Origin: Psammoneis japonica | Lineage: Eukaryota | DNA length: 64,000 nt | Direction of reading: 5' to 3' | NCBI GenBank assembly: GCA_008632985.1 | Contig: QPGO01000084.1 | Span: 1-64,000 of the forward strand | In this document: piece by piece, positions 1-24,257 of the stretch | Position numbering within the stretch: the stretch's first letter is position 1 | Layout of the letters: each line of letters opens with the position of its first letter | Translations under genes and position numbers: made by a program | Notes under the pieces: generated by a model | What the model was told of the DNA's origin: nothing | The model's input: the letters and a program-made list of their open reading frames with translations, nothing else | Databases searched by the model: none

Positions 1-1014
1 CCTGCTTCTTCTCTTGCAGTTTTGTAAGATTTGCACAGGCGCTCCACAATTTGGCACAATCCACTGATGTGACCCTCTCTGGATGCGTGCACTCCTGCAC
101 AGAATGCCCTCATTCCCAGCACATTTTGGTGAAATGCCAAGTCTCCGCTCACCAGAGGTGGGCAACATCCCTCCGCGAAAGGCCAGGGGACATCTGCACT
201 GGCATTGTGTTTGTCAAGACAAACCACGTCCAACCTGGTGTCTTCTCTTGTGGTTGCAGAATCTGCTCTGACAGGCGGCAGAGCACACATGACATGTGGG
301 AAGCGGCGCTCCATGTCATTTTTTTGGCAAGCCACCACGATTGCGCCAGGGATTTGCATCGCAAGGTGAGCCGGTGTCTCCACTTCAAAGTCAACCAAGT
401 CCAGTGTCAAAGTCACTTTGTCCATGTGTGTGTCGCAACGGATTCTGTTCTCTTGCACCCACCCCTTCAAACAAGGTTGCAAGCTGCACCTGCGCCGCGA
501 CACAACAATTGAATGCCCGAGAGTTGACGCACATTCTGCTTTTGTCCAGTTTTTTGTGCAAGCTGGATGTCTGGAATTCTCCCGCCCCAACATGGTCTGT
601 TTGCAAGTGTTGCGCTGGCCTTGCAATGCAATGTTGCCTCACCAAAGCATGTCTGGGATCGCCCAAGTCGCGTCTCTGCATTTGCAACATGTTGTCTTGC
701 TCCACTGTTTCTTGCAAAGCATTTGGCACATGTGGCCCAAACAGTTTGTGAACCCCATCCATTCTCAATGTCATTTTGCAGCTGAGGCAGGAAAACATGC
801 ATTCCAGGATGCCCTTTGTTGATGCAACGCATCCAAGGCCACCCACTGTGTTGTGCTGTTTGCAATTGGAGCACAACATGTTTGATGTCAGCCCCATGCA
901 TTTTTTGTTGTTGTTTGCTGATGCACAGATGGGGGGCTGTGATGGGCACAGCTGCTGCGTTGGGCAGTTTTCTGCACAGTCACCAAATCTCAAAATTTCA
1001 CAAGTTTGGCAATG

Positions 1015-1218
1015 GGCCGTGCACTCTCTCTCTTGAAATTTTTGGCATTTTGTTAAATGAAATGATCAAAGATTGTGTCTTTTGTGTGTCTCGTGCTCTT
1101 GAAAGAGATGACGAAATTTCAACGTTCTTTAGAAATGCTGTGGCAAGTGGGGCAACAGGCCGTGCATTCTTTCTCTTGAATTTTTTGTCATTTTGTTAAA
1201 TGAAATGATCAAAGATTG
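1015..1218 (+). repeat. ~60-bp imperfect direct repeat (1015-1075, 1158-1218)
   Basis: ggccgtgca..ctcttgaa..ttttg.cattttgttaaatgaaatgatcaaagattg occurs twice. Confidence 0.85.
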
Positions 1219-1250
1219 CATCTTTTGCACAACTTTTCCAGCAAAAAAAC

Positions 1251-1669
1251 CAGTGTTGACCAATTGCCAGGATCGGCTGCAATCATCCTCACTTTGGTTG
1301 CAATCGCAATTGCAAACTTGATTGCAATGACCTGATTGTCGGGAAAGAGCCGAGGTCACAATCACAGCCAACTGCTGCAATCGATTGCAATCAAAATTTG
1401 AGCTCTTTTTAAGCTGAAATCAGCAAAATGGCTCGATTTCTTTGCCTGCAGCAGGCTTTTCTCTTGCGCAGAGTGCGCTCTTGCGCAGAGAGTGCACCTG
1501 CATGGGGGGCACACCTGGCCGGCGGGGCGACTGCAACCACAATTGCAATCTGTTTGTCAGGCCGTGCAATCACTGTGCAGCTGCAATTGGCCAATTGCTG
1601 TTCCACAGCGATGCAATCGACTGATTGCAATCTGATTGCTGCAGAAAACTTTGCAGTTGGTCAACCCTG
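1251..1669. mobile_element. Non-autonomous hAT-like MITE (419 bp) with 8-bp target-site duplication
   Basis: TIRs cagtgttgaccaattgc and gcagttggtcaaccctg (15/17 match). Identical AAAAAAAC flanks at 1243-1250 and 1670-1677. Internal TTGCAATC/GATTGCAA repeats. Paralogous empty site at ~2879-2920. Confidence 0.85.
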
Positions 1670-1955
1670 AAAAAAACATTGATGAGAAATGGCAACTTTG
1701 CATTTTTCAACAGCTGTGAATTTGGCAACTTTCATTTGCCGGGTCACATTGCACCTCCCTGCTCCATGTTGTTGATTGGAAATGGCGGCATCTGTGCTGG
1801 TCTGTGTGGCCATCTCCACTTTGTGCAGATCCATTTCAGCTGCCTTGTGCACTGTGAATCTCTGTGTGATGTCATTGACTGTGTGCAATGCAGCTGAACT
1901 GGCGCAGAAGAAGAGACTTTTCCTGCCAGGTGTGCGGTGCACCAGGCTCAGTCAT

Positions 1956-2820
1956 CAAATGCAAAAACAATTGTGTCTGGGGGCAACTGTGGTCTCAGCA
2001 ACTTTCAAGCACTCAAAATCATTGTGCATTGACACTTTTTGCAGTGCAATGTTGTTGCTGACATGTTGCACCAAATGTAAAAACAATTGTGGCTGGTGGC
2101 AACTTTGGTCTCAGCAACTTTCAAGCACAAAGTCATTGCATTGATGCTTTTTGCACTGCAATGTTGTTGCTGACATGTTGCGCCAAATGCAAAAACAATG
2201 GTGGCTGGGGGCAACTTTGGTCTCAGCAACTTTCAAGCACAAAGTCACTGCATTGACACTTTTTGCACTGCAGCGTTGTTGCTGACATGTTGCGCCAAAT
2301 GCAAAAACAATTGTGGCTGGGGGCAACTTTGGTCTCAGCAACTTTCAAGCACAAAGTCATTGCATTGACACTTTTTGCACTGCAGTGTTGTTGCTGACAT
2401 GTTGCATCAAATGCAAAAACAATTGTCGCTGGGGGCAACTTTGGCCTCAGCAACTTTCAAGCACAAAGCCATTGCATTGACACTTTTTGCACTGCAATGT
2501 TGTTGCTGACATGTTGCACCAAATGCAAAAACAATTGTGGCTGGGGGCAACTTTGGTCTCAGCAACTTTCAAGCACAAAGTTGCTGCATTGACACTTTTT
2601 GCACTGCAATGTTGTTGCTGACATGTTGCGCCAAATGTAAAAACAATTGTGTCCAGGGGCAACCTTGGTCTCAGCAACTTTCAAGCACAAAGTCATTGCA
2701 TTGACACTTTTTGCACTGCAACATTGTTGCTGACATTCAGGAAGACATGTTGCACCAAATGTAAAAACAGTTGTGGCTGGGGCAACTTTGGTCTCAACAA
2801 CTTTCAAGCACAAAGTCATT
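1956..2820 (+). repeat. Tandem repeat, 112-bp unit, ~7.5 copies (partial copies to ~3140)
   Basis: caaatg(c/t)aaaaacaattgtggctgggggcaactttggtctcagcaactttcaagcacaaagtc recurs at 2072, 2184, 2296, 2408, 2520 and 2632. Confidence 0.95.
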
Positions 2821-3354
2821 TTGCAACCTGCTCTGAAATGTCCACACAAGACCAATGTTTGGCACCTGGTCCTGCCACTTTTCCAGCAAAAAAACGTTGG
2901 CAAGAAATGGCAACTTTGCACTTTTCAACAGCTGATCCACTTCAGCTGCCTTGTGCACTGACTCTCTGTGTGATGTCATTGGCTGTGTGTGATGCAGCTG
3001 AGCTGGCAGAAGAAGAGACTTTTCCTGCCAGGTGCACCATGATCAGCCATCAAATGCAAAAACAATTGTGGCTGGGGGCAACTCTGGTCTCAGCAACTTT
3101 CCAGTGCAAAGTCATTGCAAAACAATTGTGGCTGGGGGCAACTTCATTTGGCCAGCCCGCCACTCGCCAAAGCACAAAGCTCTTGCATGGCACAGGTTGC
3201 AGCTTGCAACTTGCAACCGAGAGGCTGGAGAGACTTTTTGTCCTGCAGGTGTTTCAAGAAGTGATGACAAATTGGGTCCACAGCCATTGACCAACCTTGC
3301 TCAGTGACACTGAAGGTGACCTCCTCACACTCAGGTGCGTGCGCACTGCGGTGG

Positions 3355-3545
3355 CTGCTCTCTGCAGCAGCCTCTGCTCTGCTGGTGGAGTGGCAGCCAG
3401 CTGGAGCAGCTGCTCTAGAGCTGGAGCAGCTAGAGCAGCTCTCTGCTCTCTAGAGCGAGAGCACAGCAGCAGAGAGCACAGTGGAGCAGCAGCTGCCACT
3501 CTCTTGGCAGAGAGCAGAGAGCTGCTCCAGCTGCTCTCCACTGCG
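3355..3545. repeat. Low-complexity CAG/CTG/AG tract
   Basis: Runs of gcagag, ctgctc and cagctg; the only TA left is in CTAG. Confidence 0.7.
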
Positions 3546-5513
3546 GCACTGCCGCACGCAGGAGCGAGGCAGTCTTCCCTGACTGCTGCACCGGTGCAAG
3601 AAGAAATCCAGTGTCAAACATCAAAACGCCATCAAGCATCAACTGTGCCATGAGAATCAACTTGTCTTCTGGCAGCAACAACAACAATGCAACGCACCTG
3701 GAGTGTTGACTTAGAGGGAAACAAACGCCAATATCCGAAGAATGTTGTGTTGGTGTCTGTTCATCCAACAACAAGGGAGTGGTGCACTGCAAGAGAACAA
3801 TTGAAGCAACCACTGGTTTTCCGAGGGTTCCATCAGAGGACAGCATCGTGGATGATGAATTGAATCCAGATGAACATCCACCTGACCCTGGCCACCCGAG
3901 CCAACATTTCTCACATGAGAACTCAACCAACGCTCAAAGATGTCAATTTCTGTCGGGCGGGGCCCATTTGTCAACACATTGTCCATGAATGGGAAATGAT
4001 GGGGCATGAAATCAAACTGTGCAATGAAGCACACGAAGAAATGTGCAAGCTGTCGGTTGGTGAACGGTGAAATCTGGCAGAGGTTGCCGTTTTAGATGAG
4101 GATGAAATGGAGGATGGATGCGGACACGTCGAAGAAGACATGCCAACATTTGCATGTCAGGCAATCCGCGCCAAACAAGTTTGCTTTTCCGTGGACACAT
4201 TGATCTGTGAAACTGGCCTTTGTCCGTACTTTCACGACAGTCATTTTCCCGAAATGAGCCACAAAACACGACAGCAATGCCAATGCTGGCATCACCGCTT
4301 GCTGCACGCCGATTCCAAGCATGAAAGCCATCGGCCCAAGCATTGCAAGATGAGGAGGGATGCTCTAAACTTGCATTTGCAGGTGTGTTTTGCAGCAATT
4401 TATTCTTTTGCGGTCATCTTCACAAACAAGCATCCAACTTCATTGGCCATTCCTTTGGTTGCACCAGAATGTCGCAGGAAATGACAACTCTCTGCTCTGG
4501 GCCTGGCAGGTGCAACCCCTTCCCCTGGATTTGATGTCACAAATCCTGCGAGCAGCTGGTTTGGTGTTGGGATGTTGTGGCAGCGATGGTGGCTTTCCCC
4601 AAGCACTTTTTTCACTGTGCCTGGGACGGGCTTGGTTGACCAGAGCAACAGCCCTCGGGTTCACAACCTCGGCCATGGTGGCCATGGTGCAAATGACGGC
4701 ACGTGTTGGAGAGCAAGTGCGTGCCACCGACAGCTCGCTTTGTGCAGTTTTTGGTGCAAAATCCACGACAACGGAAACGCAGTGTTCGCGGCCTCATTGG
4801 TCGGTGTTCGGAATGAGGCAATCGTGTGATGTGATTGGCTGCGAGGTGTGTCCAATCTCATGCAAATGACAATCATTGAAGGGAAAGTTGACGATGTTCG
4901 CGGCCGTCAGTGCCGGCACATTCTACACAAATGATGTCCACTGCTGCTCGTGAGTCGGTGTGTCTTAGACCACATCCTTGAAAGAGACAACGAAATTTTA
5001 ATGTTCTTCATCATGCTGAGGCATGGATTTCCCCTGTTTGGGACACAACTCCAAACACTGTCGCCAAAATGGGGATGATGTTTTGTGCCATTGTACAGAT
5101 TGATGATAAAATTTTTCACACTGTTGCCAAAACAGGCAAGACATTTTGTGCAATTCAATTTTCATTCCTGTGGACATTTGCAATGACATGACATGCAGTC
5201 CATGTGTGTGTGCTCCTCACACCAAAGCACTGTGTCACATTGATGCAACACATTGTTGTGTTTGGGAGACCGGCGGTCCGGACCGGCCCCGGTCCGGACT
5301 GGTGACACAGGGCCCCAAGTGATTTTGTAAAAACAATCCAATTCTTTTACAAGACCTGTGTGAATGATTGCAGTCATTTCACCAGGCTCAGCACGTGACA
5401 GTCATTGCATGCCACGCAGCGCCGGACATCAGGACTCCATCTCAGGGTTCCCTTTCAAGTGGCTTTGCTGCAACCACGCACAAGAAGAGCAACCACAACA
5501 ACAACGTTCCCAG

Positions 5514-8329
5514 ATGCCGAGAGACCCTGTTGTCAATTCCACAGCCACTCTTGGGATGGCTGCAACAATGGGTGCTTCCAATCAGCCCACCTCTGATGCT
5601 TTTGCTTGGCAGTCAAGATTGGTGCGTGCATGGCACGATGACCTGGGCGACAAAAACGACAACACGAAAAAAGCAATGAAGATGCAAGCTTCAATTAAAG
5701 CCTTGTCACACCTGCATTTTGACGATGTGTTTTAATTGAAGTTTTTGTCTGACCCTCCCCCCTGCTTTGATTGAACTGTTCTGGCAGACATGAGAGCCAG
5801 TTCTGTGCAATGTGCGACCACAAGCATGCCTCATTGGGAGACACCAAGCATTTGACTGATGAGCAAAAAGCCTTCATTTGCCTGTTCTGTTGTGCCTTTT
5901 GCCCACAAAAGAAGAGGGGCAGGGCAAACAAGGGAAAGACCAGGCCAGTCTTTGATGCTGAGCTCTTTGAAAGGGTGACAGCCAGCAATCCCTTGACTGA
6001 TGCAGCAGACGTTCCAAATGAGACCAAGTTGCTTGACCAGACAGAAGCTGGCATCAGTGAACCCAACAAGCTGTGCCAGTGGGATGTCGTCAGCCAGGCT
6101 TGTGCATCCCTCAGACGACTCTTTGTTTGTCAGCTTGAAGTGCATGGCAGAGATCCTGCTGTGTTGCTTCGTTGTGAAAATTCCAGCAGCATCAAACATC
6201 TTAAAAGGCTTGTCAAGTCCAGGAAAGCACAAGAGCAACAGAAGTGGATGGATGAGAAGGTGAGTCTCAACTGAAATGTGTTTCGCATGTTTGTTTAAAA
6301 CCGCCAACCTGTGCTGTGTTGTCCACCTCAACCCCGGTCAGGTTTCTGGCAACGTGTCACCCCACCTGGCCCATGAGCGTTTCCCAGAGTTGGAGGAGGG
6401 TTGCTGGGAAGATTTTCTGGGACATTGCCAAATCAAACAGCTGCTTTGAGCAACCGTTTCTTCATGCTACAAACAAAAGCAAGCCATTTCCCGTGGGGAG
6501 TCTCCCCTCAAGGCTGACCTGAGCAATCTTTGCAGCTTCAGCCATCAGGCAAAGAAGGAGGAACAGGCCTGCCTGATGCTCATCATGCAGATGTTCACAG
6601 GCCAAACCAATGGCAAAAGCATGCTGTTTGGCCATGTCACGTGACACAGAGATGTGAGAATGGACTCCATTGGTGCATTGGGTTTTCATCTGCTTGGCGC
6701 GCATCCAAACATGTCTGATTGTTTTGGCTTTACAAAACGTTTTAATTGAACAAACTGTTGCTGCAATCCTTTTGAATGCAGGATGCTTTGAGATCAGCAA
6801 GGAATGGGAGAAGATTGATCTCAAATGGAAGGAAACGTGGTGGAACATCAAGGTCCTTGTGGACTGTGGACGCTCAGAAGGCTGGCACATCCTCTGGAGA
6901 CAGTGCCGATTCACCCAACATGCAGCGCATGTCTCCGTCATCTTACACTGCTTGGTTTGATTGTTTGAAAGAACAGCTTGACCTGCTCATCAACTGCAGT
7001 TTGCACTTTGGACGTGTTGGAGGCACGGTTGAGTTAGAGTTGGAGGAGCTGGAGTCTTGTCTCATCAAAGCTCTTGGAAATTGGGACCCAAGTGTGTTTG
7101 ATGCTCGCTGCTCCACAAAGCTGCCCTCAAAGGTGAGTCAATGCACTTGCGGTGTGGCCTGTTTCACTTTTAATTAAAACTCACATTTTGTTTTAATTGA
7201 ACAATTCCAGGCAATGAGGGTTGCAGCTGGCTTCACAAAGGAGCCTGGAACCTGCTTTGTTTCTCGTGCCCTCTGTCAGCCTTCGATGAGTTGCAGAAGG
7301 AGATCTTTCCTTGGCTGGAAGGCATGGCGGAAGGAGTGACTTGCTGGGAGCACCCCATGGCACATGCCTTTGTTGGACTCTTGAAACAGTTGCGTGTTGT
7401 CATCCTCCAAGATGTGGCGGTGTTGATGCTGCTGGGCCGCACCCATGCCTTGTCTGAGCTTCCTGTTTTCATGTCAGCTGGATTTTTGTCATTTGAGGAT
7501 CAAACGAAGGTTTGCTTGGAAAAGGCACCCCCTTGCCCTGATGCTGGAGAGATCCGTGGGGTGTCAGAGCAGATTCAAAACTTGCACCAGGACAACCAAC
7601 ACAGCCACCAGGAGCTGTTGTCCGCAGTCAATGGGTCCATTGACTGCAACAGAATGATGATGAACAATTTTGCCTTTGCCATTAGAAATTCGCTGTGTGC
7701 AGCTGGAAACAAGCTCAACAATTTGACCCTGGAGTGGTCTCCTCCACTGACTGGGCAGCCATCACACCAGCCAGCAATTGGCGAGTGCTGCATGTCATGC
7801 TGTTTTAATTGAACGTGATTTTAAATGTTGTTTTGAACAAACATTGTTCTGACAAATTTGCGTGTTTAATTGGGGTCATTTGCAGCCACAGGCATGGTGC
7901 CGGCAGCAGGTGCACAGTCTCCCAGCACACAGTCTCCCAGTCCTGGTGTGATTGGCTTTTGACCCCCCAAGTTGAAGGACACAGATTTGGTTCAGATGTT
8001 TTTTTTTGAGGGAAATGCTCCTCCTTTCACTTCTGGCAATGGAGTCAGGCATTTGGAGGAGGACACATCATGGTGTTTGGCATGGGAGGAGAAGGACAAA
8101 AGGACCCTTTGTTGTTGAAAGCAGCTGATGGACATTGATTGTGGACAAAGTGCTGGTTGAGAACTCAGCACACCCTCAAGTTCTGGTCGTTGCCAAGTTG
8201 AATGCTTTTTGTGTCAAAGATTGCAACAAGGCATTGACGACTGCTTTGAAGAAGTTCCCTGAACAACAATGGCACTTTGTCACTCCAGCTGGCAACAGCA
8301 CAAATCAAGGGGAACTGACCAATGTTTAG
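5514..8329 (+). mobile_element. Degenerate Crypton-type tyrosine-recombinase transposon gene (Ndc10-II-like domain plus GCR1_C-like tail), intron-containing
   Basis: Motifs RGESxLKADLSNL, KTNG..LFG..HRD...IGALGFH, HFGRVGG..E...IKALGNWD..DARCSTKLP [intron ~7133-7210] AMRVAAGF, QKEIFPWLE..AFVGLLKQLRVVILQD..HAL.ELPVF, and LEE..W..W near 8070. Multiple stops and frameshifts. Confidence 0.8.
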
Positions 8330-8458
8330 AAGTTAATGTGTGTGTTGAGATTTGCTTGAGAGGCTGGTGACAGAATGGCAGAGTGCATGAAAGATGATCA
8401 CATTTGCTTTCTACGTCGTCCTCTTCTTGCATTTCAAACAAAACCCTTTGGCAACATT

Positions 8459-9730
8459 TTAAACAAAACCAACCACTGGATCAATTGAAACAACACCACT
8501 CTGAACACATTTGAACTCAATGCCAGTGTTGTTTAGAATGTCCGCCACTTTGACACAGATTTTGCCATCTGGCTTGCCTTGCCCATTCCAAATGTTGTCA
8601 TTGAGAATGTTGTGTTTGGCATGAGTGAACCATGTGGCATGTTGTGGGGCAACACCACCTGCAGAGCTTTTCTTTGCAACAAACAACTTGCCCGCCTTGT
8701 CAAATTTGTCATGGTCCTCCTGGCTGAGGGCCTTGGAAACCTTGGATGGGGGGCACTTCTGACACACTGCGATGTGCGCAAACAAGAAGCCCCTCACATT
8801 CTGTGGAATGTTGGGCAGTGCATTGCGGTTTTTCTTCACCTTGCCACCTTCCTCCCACGTGGTCTTGGGCCACTCAATGCTTTCCAGCTTTCTGAAACCA
8901 GCAAGAGCCAGATCTTTCTTGGGGGGCATGTTGAAGGTGCTTGCAGCAGCGCCAGTGGCAGCATTTTTGCTGCCCTTGCCAGCCTTGGCACTGCTTGCAG
9001 CACCAGCGGCAGCATTTTTGCCACCCTTGCCCTTGCCATCCGTGGCAGCATCCTCCTTGGCCTTGAGGCGTGCAGCATTGCAGGCACTCTTCCTTGTGGG
9101 CTCAACGGCAGCACGACAGGGTCTTGTCAGATTCTTTTTTCAGTCAGTCGTTGACTCGCTTCCGTCAAAAGCTGTTGGACATTGGCAATGTGTTTTTGCC
9201 TGTCGATTTGCAGATTGCCAAGTGTCTTTACAAAAACTGGGCTGTGGTTGGCAAAGTTTGGATTGTCAGATGCCTGCGCCGGGATCAGTGGGATGAAATG
9301 CCTCTCTTCCATCTCGCTGCAATTGCACCGCCAGTCTGTCATGGAAGGGAGGGAGACATGTTTGTTGGGTCTCTGGTGTCTGGCAGAACCATGTGGTCAA
9401 TGGCACACTGACCCACACAAGAGGTTGACAACAGCATCTTTTGGTTCTGGTGCATGCCAGGCATCATCAATGAGCTCATGAAAAGCTCCTCAATGATGGG
9501 GTGAGAACCACACAGATTGCTCAGGTGGTGTTTGGCAGCCTTGCTGCAGCAAGGGTGTGGCTGGAATGCCACAGCAATCTCAGCAAGGGTGTTGATGACA
9601 GCCTTTTTGGAAGCAAGGTGTGCCATGGTTCTGAGATCTGTGCAACTGCTTTTTTGATCAAAAATCACACAGAGTTCAGCGCTCTTCTTTTTTGTCCTGC
9701 AGCCCAAAAAATCATCTTTGGCACTGAGCA
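8459..9730 (-). pseudogene. Decayed ORF of unknown function, convergent with the Crypton gene
   Basis: Protein-like frames (MPPKKDLALAGFRKLESIEWPK..., Ala/Lys/Gly-rich linker) with no Tyr, broken by frameshifts. Confidence 0.35.
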
Positions 9731-11129
9731 ATTGTCTCTGCCAGGATCAAAAATGATGCTGGCTTGATTGGCTCACAAACCAAATGGGCCACAATGGGAT
9801 TTGCAATGCAGAAGAATTGAACCTTGCAAGGCCACCATGACCCGACACAAAAGAAAGAGCGAGATGGCCAAGAGCGACGACAAGCACATGAGGTGCAGAA
9901 CAACAGCGCTGCTGGAGAAAGAAACCAACTTGTCATTTGATGGCGCAGCTGTTGATGATGTTGGGTGACTTTGAATCAACAGGGGGACAATGCACAAGCC
10001 AAGATGATCACACAGATGTGTCAAAGGTCAGCGCACGATGTGCTGACGACAATCAAAGCAAAAAAAGATCATGTTGAGGCAGAGGAAAGCTCAGAATTCA
10101 ACAGCATGATGGTCGTCAAGTGAGCTTTCAGGAAAGACAAAGATGTGTGCATGGAACTTGTGCCAGAGTCTGTGGAGCAGAATGTGGTTGATGGTGGCAC
10201 TCTTTTGTTGGATGTGCCCAGCACCATCATTGGCTGAGACCAGTGGGACACGTGCTCGAGCGACCCATTTGCTGACTCTGCGTGCCCCAGTCAAAGCCAG
10301 AGGAAGCAACAAAAGAGCAACATGACCTGTCAGACACACAAGAAGACAGCCACGGCCATGGCAACTGTGCATCTATGAAACAAGTGAGAGGAGTCTCGTG
10401 GACTCGGTCTGCAGATCTGTGGGATGCGGGCCTCTGCTCTCGCCGGCGATAGCCAACGCAGGTCCGTCATTCATCAGCAGGTTTCCTCCCCACTGTCACA
10501 ATAACTCACAACAGCTGCGCACCAAAAAAACGAATTTTCTTTGACACAATGGCAGCACTCAATGGGAGTTGTTGTGTGGTGAGGACGTCATTTCATCAGT
10601 TGTTTAGGTGTTTACTTTTCATCAACAATTGCATCGAAAACGAAGAAAAAAACATCGCACATCATCTGCTCTTTCGACACACGATCGCCTAGTCTTTGCA
10701 CCAAGATCAAGGACCAAGGTCGCTAACTTTGCCCCTTATCGTCCATAGAAGTTGTTGATTGTTGATCATTGTTTATTCTTCGATAAAGTCTCTAAAACTT
10801 AGAAGAAGAAGAGCAAGTTTTTGTCCTCTTTTGCAGCTCGCAAAGCTCATGGTTTCATCACGCCAGAGAACATTGTGCAGAACAAGCATCGCGGTACTGC
10901 TTCTATCCGCGTAGTCACTCAAGGCTTGATGTATTCACCACAAACAATGGCTGGCTCAGCAAGAAGTATACCAAGCTGTTTTTCCGTGCATTTTCAGTGA
11001 GTAGAAGAAAACCCGTTTGCCGAGAAATCTGCGCTACAAACGTCTCGGCTCTACAGCGACACGCCCACTCAAAGTAGAGAAGGAGACGCCATTTACGAGC
11101 GTTCTGGATACAAGCTTCCCTCTGCAAAT

Positions 11130-11530
11130 TGGTATCCCAGTCACATTTCCAAGGCGGAACGTCAATTGGCGGAAACGCTACGAGCCGTGGATGTCGTTGT
11201 CGAAGCGCGGGATGCTCGTGCGGCACAAGCCACGTCTCATCCGCGTGTGGCAGAATGGTGTTCGGGCAAACCTCGTATTGTTTTATTGACCCATGCCGAT
11301 CAAGTGTCTCCGCTGTCCATTAGGTGTCGAGCGGTGGGATGGAGAGGTCAATGCACAAGTAGCCAATCAAGCACAGCAAGCAAAAGATCAACTAACCAAG
11401 GGCGGTAACTACAAGACACCAAACTCGAGTAGTTTGTCGCCGGTTCACTCGGTCTTCTCTGTCAACGCCAAACAGGGACAGGGGATTTTTGCCCTTGCAA
11501 AAGTCACTTACAAGGCGGGCGCTATGTTCA
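11130..11530 (+). pseudogene. RbgA/YlqF-like (DAR) circularly permuted GTPase, N-terminal fragment
   Basis: WYPSHISKAERQLAETLRAVDVVVEARDARA..TSHP...KPRIVLLTHAD, then a frameshift to VFSVNAKQGQG. No G1 motif follows. Confidence 0.8.
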
Positions 11531-12298
11531 GAAACGACGTCAACGACGTGGCCCGAGGAACGACCCTGCGAATCGTCATGGAGGACCAAGATGCAGCGTT
11601 AGTCTTGGCTTAGATGAAAAGCCGTTCAGATTTCAATATTATCCTAGGTTCTGGATAAGGCACAACCCATGCGCTCACATTTTTCCCGAGGACCGCGATC
11701 AATGCAATTCGGAGAGGCGCTACATTGGACTCATCATTTGAAATTTCTCTTCTCATACAACCATCGTGTACCTAATACCATGTTGGCTTTCCTTGAATTA
11801 CCCGAAGCACCTCCGGCGAGAAGGAACTCAAGCGCTCCGTCGCCGTTTGAGGAAAGACGAGCGCGTCCTCATTTCCTTGACGACGAAGCGCCTGTTGATT
11901 CGTAGCGTGTCGGGCAAAAGCACCCCGCGTCACATTAATTCGTGTGACATTGCCAAGGCCAAGGTTCCTGGTGACAGATGGCTCGGAAGTAGAAAGAAGG
12001 AAAGCGTGTGCAAGATTCACATCAAAATGGCGGACTCCGATGCCAAGCACGAGATTGTCTTTTCGCAGCCCGGAGTGTCTATTATGAATGCTACCGAGGA
12101 ACGCGACGACTTTTTGGAGCTTAGGCAGCAACACATGGTGGATGCGCAAGCTAGTTCGCCTGCCAAGGCGTAGTTGGTATTTTCGTGGGAGATCATAAAA
12201 TGTATTCATATTTATAGTAGGATGTCGCTCGTGACTCGTGGAGGATAGCAGAAGCATTGATTTGTGCAGCATGAGATAAGAGAAATATATATCTAGGC

Positions 12299-13641
12299 CT
12301 ACAGTATTAACTCTTTAGTTTGGGTGGCATAGAGGAGCGCATGACTAGGCCTTATCTGTATTGCTAGATAGTGCCAGTGTTCATTCGGCAGACTCACCGT
12401 ACCGGAACTGAGACGAAGTATTTCCCGCGGACTACAATACGAAGGCGCACAAGAACATGGATACTCCAGTAGAAGCAAACACAGAGAAACTAATGTATTG
12501 TAAACTGACACGCGAGAATGCAATCTCAAGGAGAGGGCGACAAGGGTCGCTTGGTCCCTCTTTTCTTTTCTTTGTATGCAAACGTCTGGATAATTCTTGA
12601 AGAACCAAAATACAAAGTCATCAGTGCTTCGCGTACTTGCCAATAGGTAGGGCCAAAGCGCCAGTGGCACGTCACGGCGACGAAACAGGCCTCGCCCAGC
12701 TTCGTTCATGGCACAGTAGCACTGCATTTCAACGTCTTGAGCGCTATTCTGGGCGGTCACGTCTGTCAGTGAATAGGAGGCGTTGCCAATGTCCACGGGC
12801 GTCGTTGTCAGGTTCTCGCATCCTGCCAAATAAAGACCCCGCAAATTTGGCAACTTAAGATTTCTGTAGGGATGCGAGTCAATTGCTGGCATCGCGAAAG
12901 GTCCACGCTTTCTAACTTTGCCAGCAAGCCGATTTCCACCGGCACTTCGGTGAGCCCGGAACAACCAGATAAATTCAAGGTTCTGAGACTCACCATGCGC
13001 TGACCAAACTCAAAGGGCAAAGTGATGAGATTCCTGCAATCAGCGACATACATGCAACCTAGCTCAGAACATGCACCAATATCGGGAGGCAGTCTTTTCA
13101 AAGCAGCTTATTCCGCAACCGTGAAAAGGAATAAGTTCTTCAGCTTCCCAATCTCCGATGGTATTTCGGTAAGCCTTTCACAGTTGCGCAGCGACAATTC
13201 TCGAAGCTGCGTTAGGTCGCCGATTTCAGGAGGCAATCGATCCATGATGTTGCAGCTGTGCACCAACAATGCCCGCAGCTTTTTCAACTTTCCCAATCTC
13301 CGATGGTATTTCGGTAAGCCTTTCACAGTTGCGCAGCGACAATTCTCGAAGCTGCGTCAGGTCGCCGATTTCAAGAGGCAACCGAACCATGATGTTGCAG
13401 CGGACTATCTTCAATGTCTGAAGCTTTCTCAGGAGTCCAATCTCACGAGGCAGCTGGATCAATCGTTCGCAATCCCGAAAAACGACATAACGGCGTTCTC
13501 ATATCCAGTTTCTAAATTCTGATGCAACATTCTGACAATGAGTCGATCAAATTCGGCCAAGTCTGTCATGAATTTCAAATCAAATTCTGATTTTCCGGTG
13601 GCCCGAGAAAGAGCTCTGAGAGTCTCTCGAGACTTATCCAT
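12299..13641 (-). pseudogene. Leucine-rich repeat protein, frameshifted
   Basis: LPxEIGxLxxLxxLxLxxCxxL repeats spread over several frames. Diatom-type C-terminus MNEAGR...PLALWPYLL. Internal duplication 13141-13400. Confidence 0.8.
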
Positions 13642-14039
13642 AGCTGCACAGTTGGCGAGAGCAGTTGGAAGAAGAAGGGGTCGAGATTGGATTCGCTTAC
13701 TGTGTCGTCGCTGTCCTAAAGCGTCATGGTCTTCTGCTACCTGCTACCTTCGACCTTCGACGACGTGCCGCGGGACTGCTCGAGCTCTCTAGCTAGAGAG
13801 AGCGCGCACAAAAATAGTGAGCATGCACTCCACTGGCGACAGACAGGCAGTTCGTAGAAACTTCATAGGCAGATAGGAATTTACGAGCTTTTTGTACTGA
13901 AATAAAAACTCTGGAGGCTACAGGATAGATCAGGATTTAGACAAGTCGAACCCCAGAGTAACCGTTCAACACATTCATTTTTATTCATGCCATTCATGCT
14001 GTTCATCCTAAGGAACCCCAAATTTCCAATTGACCGAGC

Positions 14040-16830
14040 GCAAGATCGATTCGAAGGTCATGCTTTTGTCTGCCCGTGTGCCCGTTTGTCTTCTTGGTTT
14101 AATGGGGTTGAGCAGTGTGTGTGGCGCAACAATGTGAGTGGCTTTGTTGGCCATGGCATTGTTGTTTTTCATGCAAAAATTCGGTGAGGGTCATTTTTGT
14201 TTTTGCACATGATTTTCAGAGTGTGCAAATGTGCTGACATCAAATCCCCTGGTTTTTGCTCAACCAAGCATCTGTGCCCCAACAATGAGATCAGCCACCA
14301 GCCCGGCCACTTGCTGAATCTCATTGCCTTGTCTTGGCGAGGCATTTCATTTGGGTTTCATTTGGGTTGGTTGGTGGCAGGAGCCCCATTTGCTGGAAAG
14401 GCAGGTTTGGGTGTCTTTGGCCACCACCTTCCTCAGCCCAGTGTGCCTTTTTTTGTTCTCATTGTGGCACTGCACACTCGCACGTCAAATGACTTGAAAC
14501 TTGGTCAGTGCACAGCCACGCTGGACAGACTCACAACAAAGCTGTGCACCAAGTGCCGTCTCACTCCTGCTGTGCCAACAGGCTTTTTCTGGACTTTGCC
14601 AGCAGCCAAAGTGGCCATCAAATGCTGCCACACATCATGATGCTGCATCAGGCCAACAAATGAAAGGAGACGTCATTTTGTCAAATGAAGCAAACAATGG
14701 CAGCTGCTGAGCTGCTGTTGCATGTGAGACATGTGGCACTTCCAAGGAGGTGCTGGTGGACATGGTTGTTTGTGGCAGAGAGTGCTCACAGCTGCAAGCT
14801 GTGCAATTCTGTGTGTGCCATTGTCCTTGCAAAAGCACTCATCCACTCTGAAGCCAGTGAGTTTGCACATGTCATTCCACAAATGTGGGTCCCCCCCCCC
14901 CAAACAGGAGCTGTCAAGAGTCAAAATGACTCTTGTTGCAGTCTTTGGGTCAGGCCACATGAGCTTCAGATGTGCTTGTGTGGAGCACAAAAATGCACTC
15001 TGTCCCGGTGGAAATGAGGCAAATTTGCCACAATGTTTGGGTGCTGTGTTGAAAAAGATGGTGGCTGCTTTAGAAATGAGAGAGCACTGATTGTAAATTT
15101 CAGTTCATTGTTGTGTCCAGAGTGCAGGCAAGAGGGTTGGCAGTTGGGTCATCTTTTCCTGTGGCACTGCAGCCCATTGGAAATTTGTCTGTTTTGTGAC
15201 ATTTGGGTGAGCTCACTTGGCATTTGGGACACAGGTGCTTCTCTTTGCCCTTTGTTGGCTGGGATGACGACAAACTGTGGTTTCAATTTCAGTGCTGCCT
15301 TTTTCCAGATGGCTTTGTTGCCTCCAATGACATGGGCATGTGTGCTGCACTTCACACAGTGCATCAGCTGCCAGATGGTCTTTCACAAATTGTTGGGGGG
15401 GAACAAATGATGGACAATGGGGTCAGGTCAGCAAAATGTGCCCCCACCCCATTTCCAAGCTGCTGTTGCAACAGCAGCACACAAATGCACATGCTTGCAC
15501 ATGGGTGTTCTGTGCATCAGATGTGTTTGTGTGCCAACTGGCTGTTGGCTGATTGCTGCAGTCATTTGGCAGTGCTGCTGTGTCATGTCATTGAGGTGCA
15601 GCCCAGCCAAGGTGACAGCAGGGAACAATCTTTGATTCTCCCAGCCAGAGGCAGCATGCAAAATGTGCTGCCAGTGTCTTTGCCTCAGGGCCAGATGTGG
15701 GCAAAATTTTGGCTGCACCCAGGGGGCTGTGTTGCTTGGCAAACTTGGCTGCACAAGGGTCTGTGGTTTTGTCAAGTTGCAACCAATCTGTGCTGTTGAG
15801 ATGGAGGCATCTGCTTCTCTGCTCTCTCCAGCTGCATGCAAAAACAACACACTGTGTCTGTTCACATGCAAAATTGACACCCTGCAATGCCTCCAGGGCT
15901 CATCTGGCCCAAGATGTGTTGTTTGTTGCCCACCAAAGAAACTGTGCATCCCAGCAACCACCCTGTGCTGCCCAAAGCACCCACTGTCAACACCCCATGG
16001 AAGGTTGTGATCACATCATCTTGAAGTGTCTGTGCAACAACAAACCACAGCACTGCTGTGCAAGCTCTCACACAGGGCACATTTGTGCCAAAAACACAAC
16101 AAGGCTCTCACTGTTCTGCCCTCATGGAATTTGCCTCATTTTGCTCTTGAATCTTGTTTTTGGGGTGAGCTGTTCTGTCCTCAAGATGCTCATCTTGGCA
16201 TCTCTGAGTTTTCACAAAATCATGGGAAACAAGAGCTGGTGGCAGCCAAAAATGACTTCTCAAGTTTGCAGAAAACAGTTCAGCAGCCTCGCACTTTCTT
16301 GACAGGTGTTTGTCTCCTGCCTCTTGTGGCATGGCATCTAGGCAGCTCAACTGGGCTGCTGCCGCAACTCCTGGAATTTTCATTTGAGTCCAACAGCGTG
16401 AAGAGCGGGGTGCTCACAATGATGCTTTTCATGGACACAACTCCTCAGAAAATGGAAAGTCTGCTCCAAATGGTGTGATGTGGAGGCAGAAGTCACTGCA
16501 ATTCCTTCCTGGGTGGATGGTCATTCAGCTCAGGACAGGGCTCCTTGGCTTGATTTTCTTGCAAATTGTCTTGCCCACTCTGCTCATTGATCATTGAGCT
16601 GGCTTGCTTTGATTGAGCCCATGTTTAAGATGAGCATCTGAGGCTTTTGATGGCTTGCTGTTTTCAAAGAATTTGAGCTGGTGTTTCCAGATCTGTTTTG
16701 GAGGCATCACTGGCCAATTTGTCACATGCCCCTGCTGCACTTTGGTGTGCTGGGGATGTGGGTTAGCTTGTTGCCAGAGTTGCCAGGTGGAAGAGTGGCA
16801 GCACCCAAAACACAGACTCTTTGTTTCTTC
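14040..16830. other. TpA-depleted domain II (unidentified decayed element)
   Basis: About 5 TA in 14102-16800 by eye (15071, 15094, 16339, 16626, 16764) and few CpG. Both flanks have normal TA. Confidence 0.9.
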
Positions 16831-17001
16831 TTATGTGCCAGGCCCTTAAGTGTTGTTCCAGTCCCCTACATGGGCTGTGGGGCGACCCCAATTGTGCGTT
16901 GTCGTTAGCTTAAGTTAGCTGCTGACTTGAGAAACCTAGTGCCATGTGTTGTTATTTTTATGTTTAACCGTTTTAATCAAAGGACAGCATTACTGAGTCT
17001 C

Positions 17002-18489
17002 TCAGGGAGTGGCAAAGGCGCTGCAAAACGTTTGCCATTCAGGTTGAGCCAGAATTGTCTTAGAATCAATCCAACAGTAGATTTTGCTGTCAACCTTCTT
17101 GTCAAAACGCTTCCGAAGTTTTTCTGGACGTTTCGGATCTGACGCTCCCACCAATTCAGCAACGTAGCGTTGATCCAATGCCAGTGATTTTTCAAATAAG
17201 TCGTTGAGAATGCCGTCTTCTGGACAAAGCATAGGCAAATCCAAAGCAGTTTGATTCAATTCTTCTTGATGCTTCATGATGGCATTGGTAATATTCGGTC
17301 GACTCCACAATGTGGCATCAATCAGCCCCGCCCGATTGGCGTCCATCGCCAAACCGCTGTAGTACAGCAAATGAATATTGCCCTTGTTTTCAAGAGATTT
17401 TGAGCCTTCTTCAGCGTTACGTCGCATACTTTCCTTGCATGAAGCGGGAGCAGCACCCTCAAGCATGTCGCACACAAATGCTGAAAGCAATCCCTTGGGG
17501 TTATGCAAGTCAAGAACTTTGACAGGGAAATGCTTGGAAGCCATTTCCACTATAGAATCAGTGAAGCAGTTGAGCTCCGAGATCCAACCGGTGTATTTGC
17601 CCCAATCGTTGTTCTTGTCTGGAAACAGTGGATCCACATAAAGTTTTTCGCCCTTGTCGTTTGTCCACGGAAACCTTTCATCATAGCTTAGCTCATGCCA
17701 AGAAGATTGCCACCAAAGAGAGGGCACCCATTCAAAATATGGTCGATAGCCACTAACAATGCTGACGTCCCAGTCCTCCTTGGTAATTTGATATAGTTTT
17801 TCGTACTGTCTTTCATCTTGCAACGAGAATGAATAATCTTCCACAGACACAAGGACATTCCTTCCGTAGGGTTTAAGATGGCCTAACTCTTTCGCCCAAA
17901 TGTCAAAAAAGTTGGGATCATCAACAGGAATGCGAAACAATTCATCACCCATGACTGTGCCATCCTGAAACGTGTGTGGTTGATTCACATAGTGCCAATT
18001 GTCTTGTTCCAAGAACCCATGGTAAGCCAATCCGGTCAATCCAGTTTGGACTGTAGTAGTTCCCGTTTTCAGAGGTCCAACGTGTAAAACAAGTCGTTGT
18101 TTTCTTTCGGATTGTGCGACTTCAGCCTTGTCACTTGTCTCAAAAGATTGTTCATCCTGAGTTGGAGTTGTAGGTTGCGTTGTTGCATTTGGCCTCAAAT
18201 CGTTTCGCCCTTCCTTTTGACCGTTCTCGTCGGCTATCATCTCTGACGGTTCCGCACCAGGAGCTGTTTTAGTAGAAGTTGGTGGATCAAGGGGGGTATC
18301 GCCAATTGAAGCGAAAAGCTCTCCGGTCTTTTCTGTGGGACGTAGGCAGGGAAATGTAGGCAACGTTGGGGCTCGAGCTTGTCGAACCAACAACTGAGAG
18401 TGCAGGATGATGTGCAGTACTGCACCTGCATATAACGCCAAATATAGAATGTGTTTCGACAAAAGTCGGCCTGTTGTTTGAAATGTCAT
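17002..18489 (-). CDS. Membrane-anchored sulfotransferase-like (P-loop) protein
   Basis: Intact ORF; N-terminal TM helix (ILYLALYAGAVLHII); LVLHVGPLKTGTTTVQ motif; start placed at MTFQ. Confidence 0.75.
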   Translation of the reverse strand: MTFQTTGRLLSKHILYLALYAGAVLHIILHSQLLVRQARAPTLPTFPCLRPTEKTGELFASIGDTPLDPPTSTKTAPGAEPSEMIADENGQKEGRNDLRPNATTQPTTPTQDEQSFETSDKAEVAQSERKQRLVLHVGPLKTGTTTVQTGLTGLAYHGFLEQDNWHYVNQPHTFQDGTVMGDELFRIPVDDPNFFDIWAKELGHLKPYGRNVLVSVEDYSFSLQDERQYEKLYQITKEDWDVSIVSGYRPYFEWVPSLWWQSSWHELSYDERFPWTNDKGEKLYVDPLFPDKNNDWGKYTGWISELNCFTDSIVEMASKHFPVKVLDLHNPKGLLSAFVCDMLEGAAPASCKESMRRNAEEGSKSLENKGNIHLLYYSGLAMDANRAGLIDATLWSRPNITNAIMKHQEELNQTALDLPMLCPEDGILNDLFEKSLALDQRYVAELVGASDPKRPEKLRKRFDKKVDSKIYCWIDSKTILAQPEWQTFCSAFATP

Positions 18490-18718
18490 GGCTGAACAAG
18501 AGGCGTTGACGACAAGAACTCTGCTTCGCAGTTTTCCAACTTGTGCGGTCGGGTGTTCACACCGTACATACCGTTCATGGAAAATCATCGCAGAAATCAG
18601 TTTACGGCTGCAGATTAACGGCTATCATACCCAGCTACTGTCTGTATGATAGCTATTATTCTGTATGTCGTTTTGAAACAAATATTTGTATAAGTATGTA
18701 TATATCTTTTGAAAGTTA

Positions 18719-19025
18719 CTACGAATTGCAAGACAATTGCGCGATTCACGTGCCCGAAGGTGGAATATCGTTGCCCGAAGCAACATTCTCCCTTCGCGCA
18801 GATGTCATTTCTACGTATGATGTGGTATCAAAATTTTCATTTTGGTCGTCTAAATCGTCCCAGTCATTTCATCAAATGACCTTGTGGTACTCTCCTACGT
18901 GATCTACGCAAATCGGAGCTTCGGGCTGGCTGGTACATTTTCTACAGGCTCTACGTGCGCGAAGCTCGAATTTCAACAATCACCCTTCGGGCACGTGAAT
19001 CGCGCAATTGTCTTGCAATTCGTAG
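18719..19025. mobile_element. Tc1/mariner-type MITE (307 bp) with perfect 42-bp TIRs and TA TSD
   Basis: ctacgaattgcaagacaattgcgcgattcacgtgcccgaagg at 18719 and its exact reverse complement ending at 19025. TA at 18717-18718 and 19026-19027. Confidence 0.9.
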
Positions 19026-19793
19026 TATGTGATTGTGTGTCTCATAGTGCCTACCGTGTTTTTGGATATTTTCGATGACTTTGAAACTGTGGAACACTTG
19101 GGGGTCGCGATTTGGAGTTTTTGACCCCCAGACCTATTTTAATGCACGCCCACATGTCTGTAGAATGCATTAAAATACCAACGGTCCAAATCAGGTCGTG
19201 TTTAGCATGTCAAAAGTGTTCCACAATTTCGGTTGCTCGCCAATCAAAGAAATTCGGCACAACATTAATTATTTTAATAATTATATATATTTCAATGATC
19301 ACACCCAAAACTCATACCTCATCTTCCGAAAAAACCGCCAGAGCTTACCCCCCCATTCCCCCCCCACGGAATGAGCAGACTCTCAGCTTTCCATCGATGT
19401 ATCGCATGTGGGGTAACTGTGCGTACAAAATTTCAACTCATCATAAATACTCAAGTGCACGGTACATACAGCACCGCTATGCACGTTCTTTTACTGTAGC
19501 AAGCTAAATAGATGTAAAATAATACAGGGAAAATCAATATATTAGGTGTTGGATGAAAACATTATATCCAAAATGGGGGGCTGGCTGGGCTGGCCGGACC
19601 CTATACTACCGTACAAAAATTTCCGTAGATTCCTACACGAATTTGGAATTTTTGAAGGCCTTGATGTGCTTGCGTGCAATCGACGAGGAACGAACGACGA
19701 CTCACTCCTCGTTCACTCATTCACTCTCTCGCTGCCAAGATATAGTAAGAGAGTTAGGGCCCTAGTTAAAAGGCTTTCACTACAGTTACCACC

Positions 19794-21172
19794 ATGGGCT
19801 GTGCTTCCTCTACAGCCACTGCCAAAGATGAGGTTGTCCATAGTACATCTACACCCAAAGCTCTTCACGAGAGTAGAGAAAAGAGTATCACGGCTGGCAC
19901 AGAAGCCATGACGAATCATGTTCATCTTGACAGCAACGTTCTGAGCGACGCGTCTTTTACTACAAACGAGACTAAAGCACCAACAAGCAAATCTGCCATA
20001 CTGGGCGGTAGCCTCCATGTACGATATGCCTGCATGAGTCGTAAAGGACGAGATCCGGAGAATCTGTCGAAACCCAATCAAGATGCATATTCCGTCCACG
20101 AAGGATTTTACAAGGATGCTGACTTTTTCGGTGTCTACGACGGCCACGGACCCGAGGGCCAGGAATGCTCGCAGTTTGTTCGACGACGTCTGCCTGAACT
20201 TGTTCGATGCAAATTAAAGGAGAATTCTCAGGATTTGTACAACATGTCATTGCATGATGCGCACGTGGAATGCAATGAGGAATTGCGTTCCTGCTCGGCC
20301 ATTAATGATTTGTATTCGGGAACGACCTGTATTACGCTCTACGTGCACGGTCAAGACAGTGGTAAACTTTCCATTTGCAATCTGGGAGACAGTCGCGCCA
20401 TTATGGGGACACCCATTGCTTCTTCAACCTCATTGCGGGCGGTGCCCTTGTCCAACGACCAAACGCCCAAGCGAGCGGACGAGGCGGCACGATGCAAACG
20501 ATCCGGTGCGAGAATTCTATCCTTTGGTGAAATCGATCCATCTACCAAAGAGGACGACGATGATGTAGAGGATCCGCCCCGTGTTTGGAGTAAAAAGGGA
20601 AACTACCCCGGCGTTGCATTTACACGATCCATTGGTGACGGTACGTTTTTTGTGACCCTACCCAAAAAAGATATCTGTATGGAACCAAATTCTATCTCTA
20701 CCGGTAACCTTACTCCCGCTTATGTATAGCCGTTGCTGAAAAACTAGGCGTCTTTGCGGAACCCGAACAGTTAACTTTGAAGCTTTCTCCCCATGAAGTT
20801 AAAATTATTGTCCTTGCGACCGATGGGGTTTTCGACGTCATGTCGGATCAAGAAGTGATTGATTTGTGCCATCGGCATTATAGGCAAGACCCGATGCAAG
20901 CGTGTAGGGCCGTTATCGAAAAAAGTCACAGGGAGTGGCTGAACAATGATGACTGCTGTATAAATGAGGAAACGGCGAATTATGATGACATGACAATGAT
21001 ATGCATCTTTATTGATAGTGATCAACAGATTGTTGGTGCGACAGCGGATACTCCTGAAAAGGACAATGCCCGACTCTCAGCGGCCTCAGAACCTGCACAA
21101 CCGAAACAGAAACGAGTCAGGCACAAGCAAAAAACTCTTCAGAATCTAGAGGAGATGGGGATTCAACAATAG
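19794..21172 (+). CDS. Protein phosphatase 2C (PPM family), one intron 20641-20729
   Basis: MGCASS myristoylation-type start; NQD, GVYDGHG, NLGDSRA, AFTRSIGD|AVAEKLG, LATDGVFD and DDMT motifs. The GT-AG intron restores the frame. Confidence 0.93.
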
Positions 21173-21404
21173 CTGAAATTATTGACAGATGTGGTGCTAA
21201 GGTGCGTTTTCTAAGTCCCGCGATCAAGTAGATATTTCAGCAAACTGCGCTCACAACCTTTGGGTTCTCAAATCGATTCATAAATTCAACTAAGTAAAAG
21301 TTTAATATATGCGTAATACAGATATCATCGAGATCTGCTCGTTTGTTTTCTTCATTAGCCCCGTGAAAGCCAATCAGCGTCCATCAGTGCCTGAAGAGAC
21401 TCTT

Positions 21405-23733: not shown

Positions 23734-24257
23734 GTACAGTATCTTGTTGGTTTCGTTTGTGTCGGCAAGGACGGTGTGGATGGATGGAAAGCAGTTTGGG
23801 ATGCATTAAATGAACTTAAAGAAAGCGGGAAATAGCCGCCCATACACCTGGTAGAACGTCGACTCCCTCTGTTTTGGTGAAAGCACCTCTGTGAGCGATG
23901 ATCGAGCTCGTGAGCGATAAGGGGAAAATGTGAGCGAGCCTTGAGATCGCTGACGATTTGTGGGAGCCCCTTATATTTTATTTGTGAATTATGAATATAT
24001 GAAATCTTAATAACGGCACAAATAAAAGACTTAGGACGAATGGAAAAGAAACTTGAAGTAAGGACCTAATTATAAGTCATTACGGTTAAACCGACGTTAT
24101 ATCAGAAACTCTGGAAACGACTAGTTGGCATCGCTCACAATTTATCTCCCAGAAAGGTATGCCTCAAACAAAAACTAATGTGGAAGCTCACAACTTTCAA
24201 ACAGTCAGATCCGTCAATCAGGCTCTATTATTTATCTCGATCATCACCGTCATCGCA

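Follow-up and report, generated by a model that had tools for sequence, protein, structure and literature searches.

The first 64,000 nucleotides of Psammoneis japonica contig QPGO01000084.1 (GCA_008632985.1; positions 1–64,000, forward strand), which we call the window, contain within 5,514–8,329 what is very probably a dead, intron-bearing copy of a Crypton. Its gene has lost tyrosine (Tyr) selectively, the nucleophile of the recombinase included, very probably through hypermutation of TA dinucleotides to TG or CA, a statement that describes the outcome and not the chemistry. Cryptons have one tyrosine-recombinase gene with an R-H-R-Y catalytic tetrad, may contain introns, and are known from stramenopiles, including oomycetes and a diatom (Kojima and Jurka, 2011, PMC3212892). 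Hypermutation at TpA has already been reported in another alga in a 2026 preprint, and the locus in the window is a worked example, not a first sighting. New here are the counts of Tyr columns, a defined case at a nucleophile column, a second Crypton, the arithmetic that yields no stop codons, and the sparing of the TAA context.

Gene Identity and the Catalytic Tyrosine

Judging by homology, the gene encodes a Crypton-type tyrosine recombinase of the NDC10_II family, as a first-pass annotation made from the letters alone had proposed. A full HMMER search of 1.84 billion representatives with a 120-residue piece (6776–7135) returned 28 proteins at E ≤ 1e-3, the best of them P0001 (E = 5.1e-13, 51% identity), and the DARCSTKLP segment discussed below is therefore not a chance resemblance. 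The full search was needed, since word-indexed protein searches with exons 6776–7135 and 7201–7809 found nothing at E ≤ 0.01. Sequence searches of PDB gave two chance-level rows with exon 7201–7809 (E = 0.4 and 0.92) and nothing at E ≤ 10 with a profile of alignment A2. When seven translated pieces of the gene were scanned with Pfam, the piece 7201–7809 alone matched, to NDC10_II (E = 7.5e-6). The same domain was found in all 25 relatives scanned (best E = 1.3e-31), two of which also carry GCR1_C, as CryptonF does. The close relatives of P0001 are P0029–P0032; P0033 is more distant and has GCR1_C. By these matches the recombinase domain is homologous to that of Crypton/NDC10_II proteins.

Structure prediction for P0001, a relative and not the window copy itself, is consistent with this assignment. 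Its AlphaFold model (mean predicted local distance difference test, pLDDT, 73.4) finds its closest solved fold in Ndc10 (PDB 4aco; Z = 21.1, 280 aligned residues, root-mean-square deviation 3.8), followed by Flp (Z = 15.0, 248 aligned), Cre/Tre (Z = 11.6, 169 aligned) and lambda integrase (Z = 7.9); it also matches Xer recombinases, and type IB topoisomerases at Z of about 6–7. The relative is thus predicted to have the tyrosine-recombinase fold.

To compare residues we used an alignment of 27 of the 28 HMMER matches (A1; P0027, with 1849 residues, matched only query positions 13–61 and was dropped) and a second alignment, A2. The latter was too diverse for locus finding, for which a narrower one, A3, served; it gave one metagenome locus, L001. 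This intact relative has a continuous frame of 778 codons at 648–2981 and a TA observed/expected ratio of 0.53.

The codon at the nucleophile column, nine residues past the tryptophan (Trp) of GNW, is TGC, cysteine (Cys). Across A1, 26 of 27 rows show Tyr at this place; the remaining one, P0015, shows histidine (His) and is itself almost free of Tyr. L001 has TAC. The first-pass annotation had described exactly this change, from TAC to TGC, and its motifs DARCSTKLP (GATGCTCGCTGCTCCACAAAGCTGCCC), HFGR, GNW and ALGFHL are all found by translation where it had placed them (Table 1). At its second site, the His of ALGFHL, the family likewise has Tyr, in 17 of the 19 occupied rows of A2; intact homologues do not carry Cys or His at these columns.

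Invariant in A2 are H204, G206, R207, G228, N229 and W230 (P0001 numbering), and Y239 is nearly so. H204, R207, W230 and Y239 each equal the number of a Cre residue (His289, Arg292, Trp315 and Tyr324, named after Gibb et al., 2010, PMC2943603) minus 85, and the structural alignments to Cre, which stop at model residue 232 (chain residue 317) or 229 (314), agree with that offset. The alignments thus support placing the Cys at the nucleophile position of the recombinase. In Cre, none of 19 substitutions of Tyr324 was active, and cysteine was among the alternatives considered (Gibb et al., 2010, PMC2943603). The window copy retains the arginine (Arg) at 6492, the His at 7004 and the Arg at 7013, and the R-H-R-Y tetrad is incomplete in that its Tyr column reads Cys, which makes the locus a Crypton by descent, but a dead one and not an active recombinase. 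A second active-site residue may be gone as well. The lysine (Lys) of the family motif GKTN, which lies between strands 94–101 and 112–117 in the P0001 model, is glutamine (Gln) here and could be the hairpin lysine.

A Cys codon need not come from Tyr, and a founder with CGC (Arg) or another codon at this place could have reached TGC by CpG deamination. A C does precede the codon (cgc TGC), and Cys does arise by CpG decay in this gene: at four other Cys codons of the window copy the family has Arg. Yet the homologues that have Tyr at the nucleophile column number 26 of 27 and none has Arg, L001 has TAC, an active recombinase requires Tyr (PMC2943603), and TAC to TGC is one TpA edit in a susceptible context. 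We regard a founder codon other than Tyr as very improbable.

Tyrosine Loss Across the Protein

We counted 695 of 772 codon columns, those covered by at least three of the five close relatives (P0001 and P0029–P0032), and dropped the rest. P0033, P0002 and P0015 were also aligned to the DNA and stay outside the count, their alignments being fragmentary. Among columns that are invariant in these relatives, the window copy keeps 213 of 400, but just 1 of 14 where the residue is Tyr compared to 212 of 386 for all other residues (Fisher p = 4.5e-4). Majority columns (≥60%) give the same picture (254 of 565 kept; Tyr 1 of 20, non-Tyr 253 of 545, Fisher p = 1.2e-4). Tyr has thus been lost far more often than other residues, in line with the first-pass annotation.

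The 19 lost majority Tyr columns now read His (5), Cys (5), phenylalanine (3), leucine (2), and methionine, glutamine, proline and isoleucine (1 each). Replacement by Cys or His accounts for 10 of these 19, in contrast to 21 of the 292 other changed columns (p = 1.1e-6). The frame-corrected product on the path of L001 (739 codons) has 1 Tyr, 32 Cys and 25 His, where L001 has 25, 10 and 19, and nowhere does a Cys or His of L001 face a Tyr in the window copy. Tyr makes up 1.7–3.3% of the residues in six host-type frames at other places of the window. The loss of Tyr is general across the gene and not confined to the active site.

Direction and Context of the Mutations

The DNA changes were read against L001. 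Of its 70 codon-aligned TA sites, one is still TA in the window, 16 are TG and 15 are CA, while other dinucleotides are kept at 19–38%. CG sites are kept in 10 of 70 cases, with 12 now CA and 11 TG. From this comparison the direction of change is TA to TG/CA. Base composition agrees: across 1–8000, TA observed/expected is 0.05–0.10, TG and CA 1.7–1.9 and CG 0.34–0.44. Calculated per kb, TA observed/expected lies at 0.02–0.13 across 1–10000 and then rises to 0.27–0.79. Gene-bearing stretches of the window, which encode a PP2C, a GT8 glycosyltransferase, a delta carbonic anhydrase and a BTB protein (Pfam), reach 0.4–0.8. The window therefore displays hypermutation of TpA to TpG/CpA, with local TA depletion, an excess of TG and of CA, and genes spared.

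These numbers bear on the simplest alternative, that an old pseudogene decayed neutrally and that Tyr to Cys was one random substitution with no special process behind it. Five frameshifts, three in-frame stops and a residue match to the relatives of about 39–45% overall are what such decay would leave. It does not account for Tyr columns kept at 1 of 20 against 253 of 545, for TA sites kept at 1 of 70 against 19–38% for other dinucleotides, or for TA at 0.05–0.10 with TG and CA at 1.7–1.9 when host genes in the same window have TA of 0.5–0.8 and 1.7–3.3% Tyr, and we consider it highly improbable.

The TA sites that persist follow a context rule. We compared 22 kb of hypermutated DNA (1–10000 and 32001–44000) with 30 kb of normal DNA (11001–31000, 47001–52000 and 59001–64000), expressing survival in each of ten TA contexts, reverse complements pooled, relative to normal window DNA. 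Survival is highest for TTAA (0.65), followed by CTAA/TTAG (0.29), GTAA/TTAC (0.20) and ATAA/TTAT (0.17); CTAC, GTAC, ATAG and ATAT are each at ≤0.05, and ATAC is at 0 (0 vs. 149). CTAG (0.21) is an exception, having no A after TA on either strand. The process appears largely to spare the A when the next base is A. Tyr codons are TA followed by C or T, which puts their coding-strand A always in a susceptible context, and with only TA-then-A spared they are always targets. The one family Tyr column that survives, at 6944, has a T before its TAC, which protects the other strand.

The genetic code determines what such edits do to a protein. The frame of L001 contains 76 TA sites, 25 of them within Tyr codons. 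Its 152 possible single TA edits comprise 103 non-synonymous and 49 synonymous changes; 50 fall on Tyr and none makes a stop. With all TA sites converted, no Tyr and no stop is left and 45–58 residues are altered. The proposal of the first-pass annotation that TpA editing removes Tyr without creating stops is borne out by this arithmetic. Edits of the kind made by repeat-induced point mutation (RIP) would create stops in the same frame at 50 of 195 and 11 of 196 sites.

We suggest the following sequence of events. The single gene of the copy would originally have encoded an NDC10_II-family tyrosine recombinase, and after insertion the copy would have sat in repeat DNA exposed to a dinucleotide-specific mutation process. 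TA would then have changed to TG or CA, i.e., A:T to G:C at TpA on either strand, with CG decaying to TG/CA in parallel. A Tyr codon would become Cys (TGY) if the coding strand was edited and His (CAY) if the other strand was, and the nucleophile codon would have gone from TAC to TGC; the process would be unable to create stop codons. Of this scheme, the data show the homology, the identity of the nucleophile column, the Tyr-specific loss, the direction of change and the context rule; that repeats are the target, and in what order the lesions arose, we infer.

As to chemistry, we tentatively favour adenine deamination on DNA, a suggestion that could well prove wrong. TA is self-complementary, so a reaction on thymine (for instance a modified or mispaired T at TpA, giving T to C) leads to an identical TG/CA outcome. 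The symmetry between strands (16 TG vs. 15 CA; 5 Cys vs. 5 His) is compatible with thymine chemistry, and so is the context rule, since "A not before A" and "T not after T" describe it equally well. Against it stands the sole published account, which proposes adenine deamination, without proof (bioRxiv 10.64898/2026.01.13.699255). We think the thymine route unlikely, though worth keeping in view.

Gene Structure and Lesions of the Copy

We aligned P0001, P0029–P0032 and L001 to the window with a protein-to-DNA dynamic programme of our own that tolerates both frameshifts and introns; the alignments span 5786/5810 to 8246–8444. The first exon of the first-pass annotation fell outside the homologous region, since the proteins of the relatives begin further downstream. 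Coordinates of the gene, its motifs and its lesions are collected in Table 1.

Table 1. Features of the Crypton copy and the surrounding block (window coordinates).
Feature	Position	Strand	Evidence
TA-depleted (hypermutated) block holding the Crypton element	1..10300		per-kb TA observed/expected
First exon of the first-pass annotation; no homologue support, no Pfam match	5514..5732	+	relatives begin at ATG 5810 (MCD)
Dead Crypton-type recombinase coding region with introns, frameshifts and in-frame stops	5810..8329	+	protein-to-DNA alignments
Predicted intron, GTGAGT...CAG, 82 nt, not in the relatives' continuous frames	6260..6341	+	alignments
Compensating frameshift pair, +2 near 6412–6415 and +1 at 6476	6412..6476	+	alignments
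First catalytic Arg (RGES), CGT, kept	6492..6494	+	Arg in 9/9 occupied A2 rows
Gln (CAA) in place of family Lys of GKTN	6603..6605	+	Lys in 14/14 occupied rows
In-frame TGA at family Arg column (L001 CGT)	6642..6644	+	L001 alignment
ALGFHL motif	6675..6692	+	translation
His (CAT) of ALGFHL at conserved Tyr column	6687..6689	+	Tyr in 5/5 close relatives and 17/19 occupied A2 rows; L001 TAC
Predicted intron, 85 nt, best in-frame GT..AG candidate, ends uncertain	6713..6797	+	alignment puts it at 6702–6786
Second frameshift pair, +1 at 6862–6865 and +2 at 7284–7287	6865..7287	+	alignments
Sole family Tyr column still Tyr (TAC, T before it)	6944..6946	+	close-relative columns, L001
HFGR with catalytic His and second Arg, neither changed	7004..7015	+	His 25/25 and Arg 25/25 in A2
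GNW motif	7076..7084	+	translation
Trp of GNW (His/Trp-III position), kept	7082..7084	+	Trp in 25/25 rows
DARCSTKLP	7100..7126	+	translation
TGC (Cys) at nucleophile Tyr column	7109..7111	+	Tyr in 26/27 homologues; L001 TAC
Predicted intron, GTGAGT...CAG, 78 nt, right behind catalytic segment	7133..7210	+	alignments
Predicted intron, approximate ends	7785..7885	+	alignments place it within 7768–7881
In-frame TGA at family Arg column (L001 CGT)	7960..7962	+	L001 alignment
In-frame TGA (8116–8118) and frameshift +1 at 8134	8116..8134	+	alignments

The copy carries five frameshifts and three in-frame stops, all of them TGA (6642, 7960 and 8116). The second frameshift pair puts the whole HFGR–GNW–Cys segment out of frame relative to its neighbours. 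The TGA codons at 6642 and 7960 stand opposite CGT in L001, which would fit CpG decay and not TA editing. Given the frameshifts and TGA stops, the Tyr change cannot be called the event that killed the copy. No convincing terminal repeat of the element was found in 4800–9300. A blastn comparison of L001 with the window gave a single match, 36 bases within the coding region, and no non-coding similarity.

A different history for the missing nucleophile is domestication, in which a Crypton-derived host gene of the Ndc10/Cbf2 or DUF3504 type lost its Tyr under selection for a role in DNA binding. Crypton-derived genes lacking the catalytic Tyr are known (PMC3212892), and Ndc10 is the closest solved fold to the P0001 model; window copy and these proteins share a fold family (P0001 Z = 21.1) and the absence of the nucleophile Tyr. 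However, the latter are intact, conserved host genes, and an intact conserved open frame is not what the window holds: the copy is a pseudogene broken by five frame-shifting indels and in-frame TGA at 6642, 7960 and 8116, with its catalytic segment out of frame. Its losses extend to all Tyr columns instead of the active site alone, and it lies inside a 10-kb hypermutated block. Its Tyr would have gone by mutation, not selection. There is only the slightest chance, in our estimate, that this is a domesticated gene.

The gene of L001 is intronless, in contrast to the four introns of the window copy; its contig could stem from a transcript, or the introns could be peculiar to the lineage of the window copy. 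A motif of 13–19 bases with the core GTTTTAATTGAAC occurs four times on the + strand only (5723–5741, 6733–6751, 7184–7202 and 7796–7814). The window has no further copy, and of the four, three lie within introns of the Crypton gene and one upstream of the gene start. The motif includes TTAA, a spared context, and its exact 11-base repeat exceeds what survival alone explains. Just downstream of the Crypton gene and on the opposite strand is an open frame of 226 residues without Pfam match (8459–9139, −), with an Ala/Gly/Lys-rich stretch made of 51-base direct repeats (8946–9065).

Other Copies and a Second Crypton

The window itself has one Crypton copy. In one public DNA run (X1), 152 short contigs fall on 5500–8400 at 90–100% identity (67 at ≥99%, 41 at 95–99% and 44 at 90–95%), which fits several diverged copies; alleles or strains are also possible. 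Of 98 differences between these contigs and the window, 80 are transitions and 18 transversions, and among the differences listed there are at least seven adjacent two-base swaps. Six of the listed swaps have CA in the window and TG in the contig (6006/7, 6025/6, 6042/3, 6052/3, 6543/4 and 6614/5) and one runs in reverse (6622/3), the expected trace if a single ancestral TA was hit on one strand in one sequence and, independently, on the other strand in another. One of them touches a family Tyr column: at 6543–6545 the window reads CAT (His) and another X1 contig TGT (Cys). The contigs also differ at the lesions, with an extra C behind 6414 in four, an extra A behind 7284 in one, four bases missing at 8134 in two, and a C at 6642 in one. 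At least some of the lesions are therefore private to the window copy.

P0015 (592 residues), the one homologue with His at the nucleophile column, has 1 Tyr and 53 Cys + His. Its cluster mate P0065, from environmental data, is a single open frame of 872 residues with 2 Tyr and 70 Cys + His; in both proteins Cys + His make up 8–9% of residues. Compared with 14 relatives, P0065 keeps none of 11 Tyr-majority columns (5 His, 2 Cys), against 131 of 323 for all columns (p = 0.0036), and at three universally conserved Tyr columns it reads Cys, Cys and His, the His being at the nucleophile. Going by its composition and alignment, P0015/P0065 would apparently be a hypermutated Crypton element to which a gene caller assigned a protein.

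Surrounding DNA

Further blocks with TA observed/expected of about 0.16 or less lie at 14001–16000, 32001–46000, 54001–58000 and 63001–64000, and the low-TA blocks end sharply against gene-bearing DNA at 0.4–0.8. CG observed/expected drops as low as 0.09 in 40001–44000. One of the host genes, the delta carbonic anhydrase (CA_like, E = 9.7e-49), is at 52632–53891 (−); a domain of this kind is in keeping with a marine, diatom-like alga. With TAA and TAG erased and TGA the sole stop left, hypermutated blocks abound in long open frames that overlap one another on both strands (e.g., 5771–6337, 8459–9296 and 35269–36646). Pfam was run on 22 of the window's 70 long frames. Six matched, all of them host-type genes; the scan gave no family in frames of hypermutated DNA and no domain of the reverse transcriptase (YxDD) or HUH kind, to which the first-pass annotation had extended its inference.

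Comparison With Known Systems and Meaning

The nearest precedent is the integrated viral DNA of Bigelowiella natans, where TpA hypermutation was described by Mettrop et al., who used mutation-accumulation lines (2026 preprint, bioRxiv 10.64898/2026.01.13.699255). According to that account the changes there, like those in the window, are nearly all T/A to C/G transitions, occur at TpA only and are confined to foreign or repeat DNA, and TpA-depleted coding sequences of B. natans are enriched in transposon domains (bioRxiv 10.64898/2026.01.13.699255). The window differs from it in its diatom-like host lineage, in a DNA transposon as target, and in the accompanying CpG decay (CG 0.34–0.44). The available main text of the preprint does not contain "tyrosine", "stop codon", "trinucleotide", "TTAA" or "flanking" (bioRxiv 10.64898/2026.01.13.699255), and a literature search on the consequence of TpA hypermutation for Tyr in transposable elements returned nothing relevant by title or abstract. 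Compared with CryptonF and CryptonS, the window copy stands apart by its Cys in place of Tyr, its frameshifts and its stops.

RIP of ascomycete fungi also makes dinucleotide-specific transitions in DNA and thereby disables repeats, turning CpA into TpA and creating stops. The process in the window resembles it in acting on DNA, at one dinucleotide, and disabling repeated elements, but what it removes is TpA, and with it TAG, most TAA and Tyr, and none of 152 possible edits creates a stop. Fungal-type RIP, with C to T at CpA and a gain of TpA, was considered as a candidate and does not match: TA is depleted, and the direction is TA to TG/CA.

Several points count against our reading of the copy as a hypermutated Crypton, or limit it. 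Nine of the 19 lost Tyr columns read neither Cys nor His, for which a single TA edit is insufficient; divergence between lineages or changes at a later time may be responsible. The relatives are remote, with L001 identical to the copy at 287 of 739 residues, and the ancestral states would be those suggested by family conservation, not those of a true ancestor. The Pfam match of piece 7201–7809 to NDC10_II scores 25.7 bits, just below the cut-off of 26.3. In the P0001 model the segment that holds the Tyr (228–240) is poorly modelled, with pLDDT <50, so that the equivalence of Tyr239 and Cre Tyr324 rests on motif spacing, conservation and the ends of the alignment ranges. The X1 contigs may mix alleles or strains with paralogues. 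For P0065, the metagenome scan gave no DNA locus, and its TA depletion is deduced from amino-acid composition only.

With TA hypermutation as our preferred explanation, the counts show what a TpA-specific mutator does to a protein: Tyr is removed, the nucleophile of a recombinase included, and reading frames are left open, the opposite of RIP. Hypermutated transposon genes will consequently be called as proteins and escape word-based homology searches, and they can be recognized by near-zero Tyr together with an excess of Cys and His. The context rule, in which TA followed by A is spared, constrains candidate enzymes.

More generally, and with considerable doubt, we propose that a mutator which spares TA-then-A hits every TAY codon, tends to leave TAA and makes no stops, and so yields long, open, Tyr-free frames rich in Cys and His that gene callers report, P0065 being an example. 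If this is true, a Tyr-free, Cys- and His-rich composition would be a protein-level fingerprint by which the process could be traced across uncultured eukaryotes without their DNA, and open but catalytically dead recombinase folds could feed domestication as DNA-binding proteins of the Ndc10 and DUF3504 kind.

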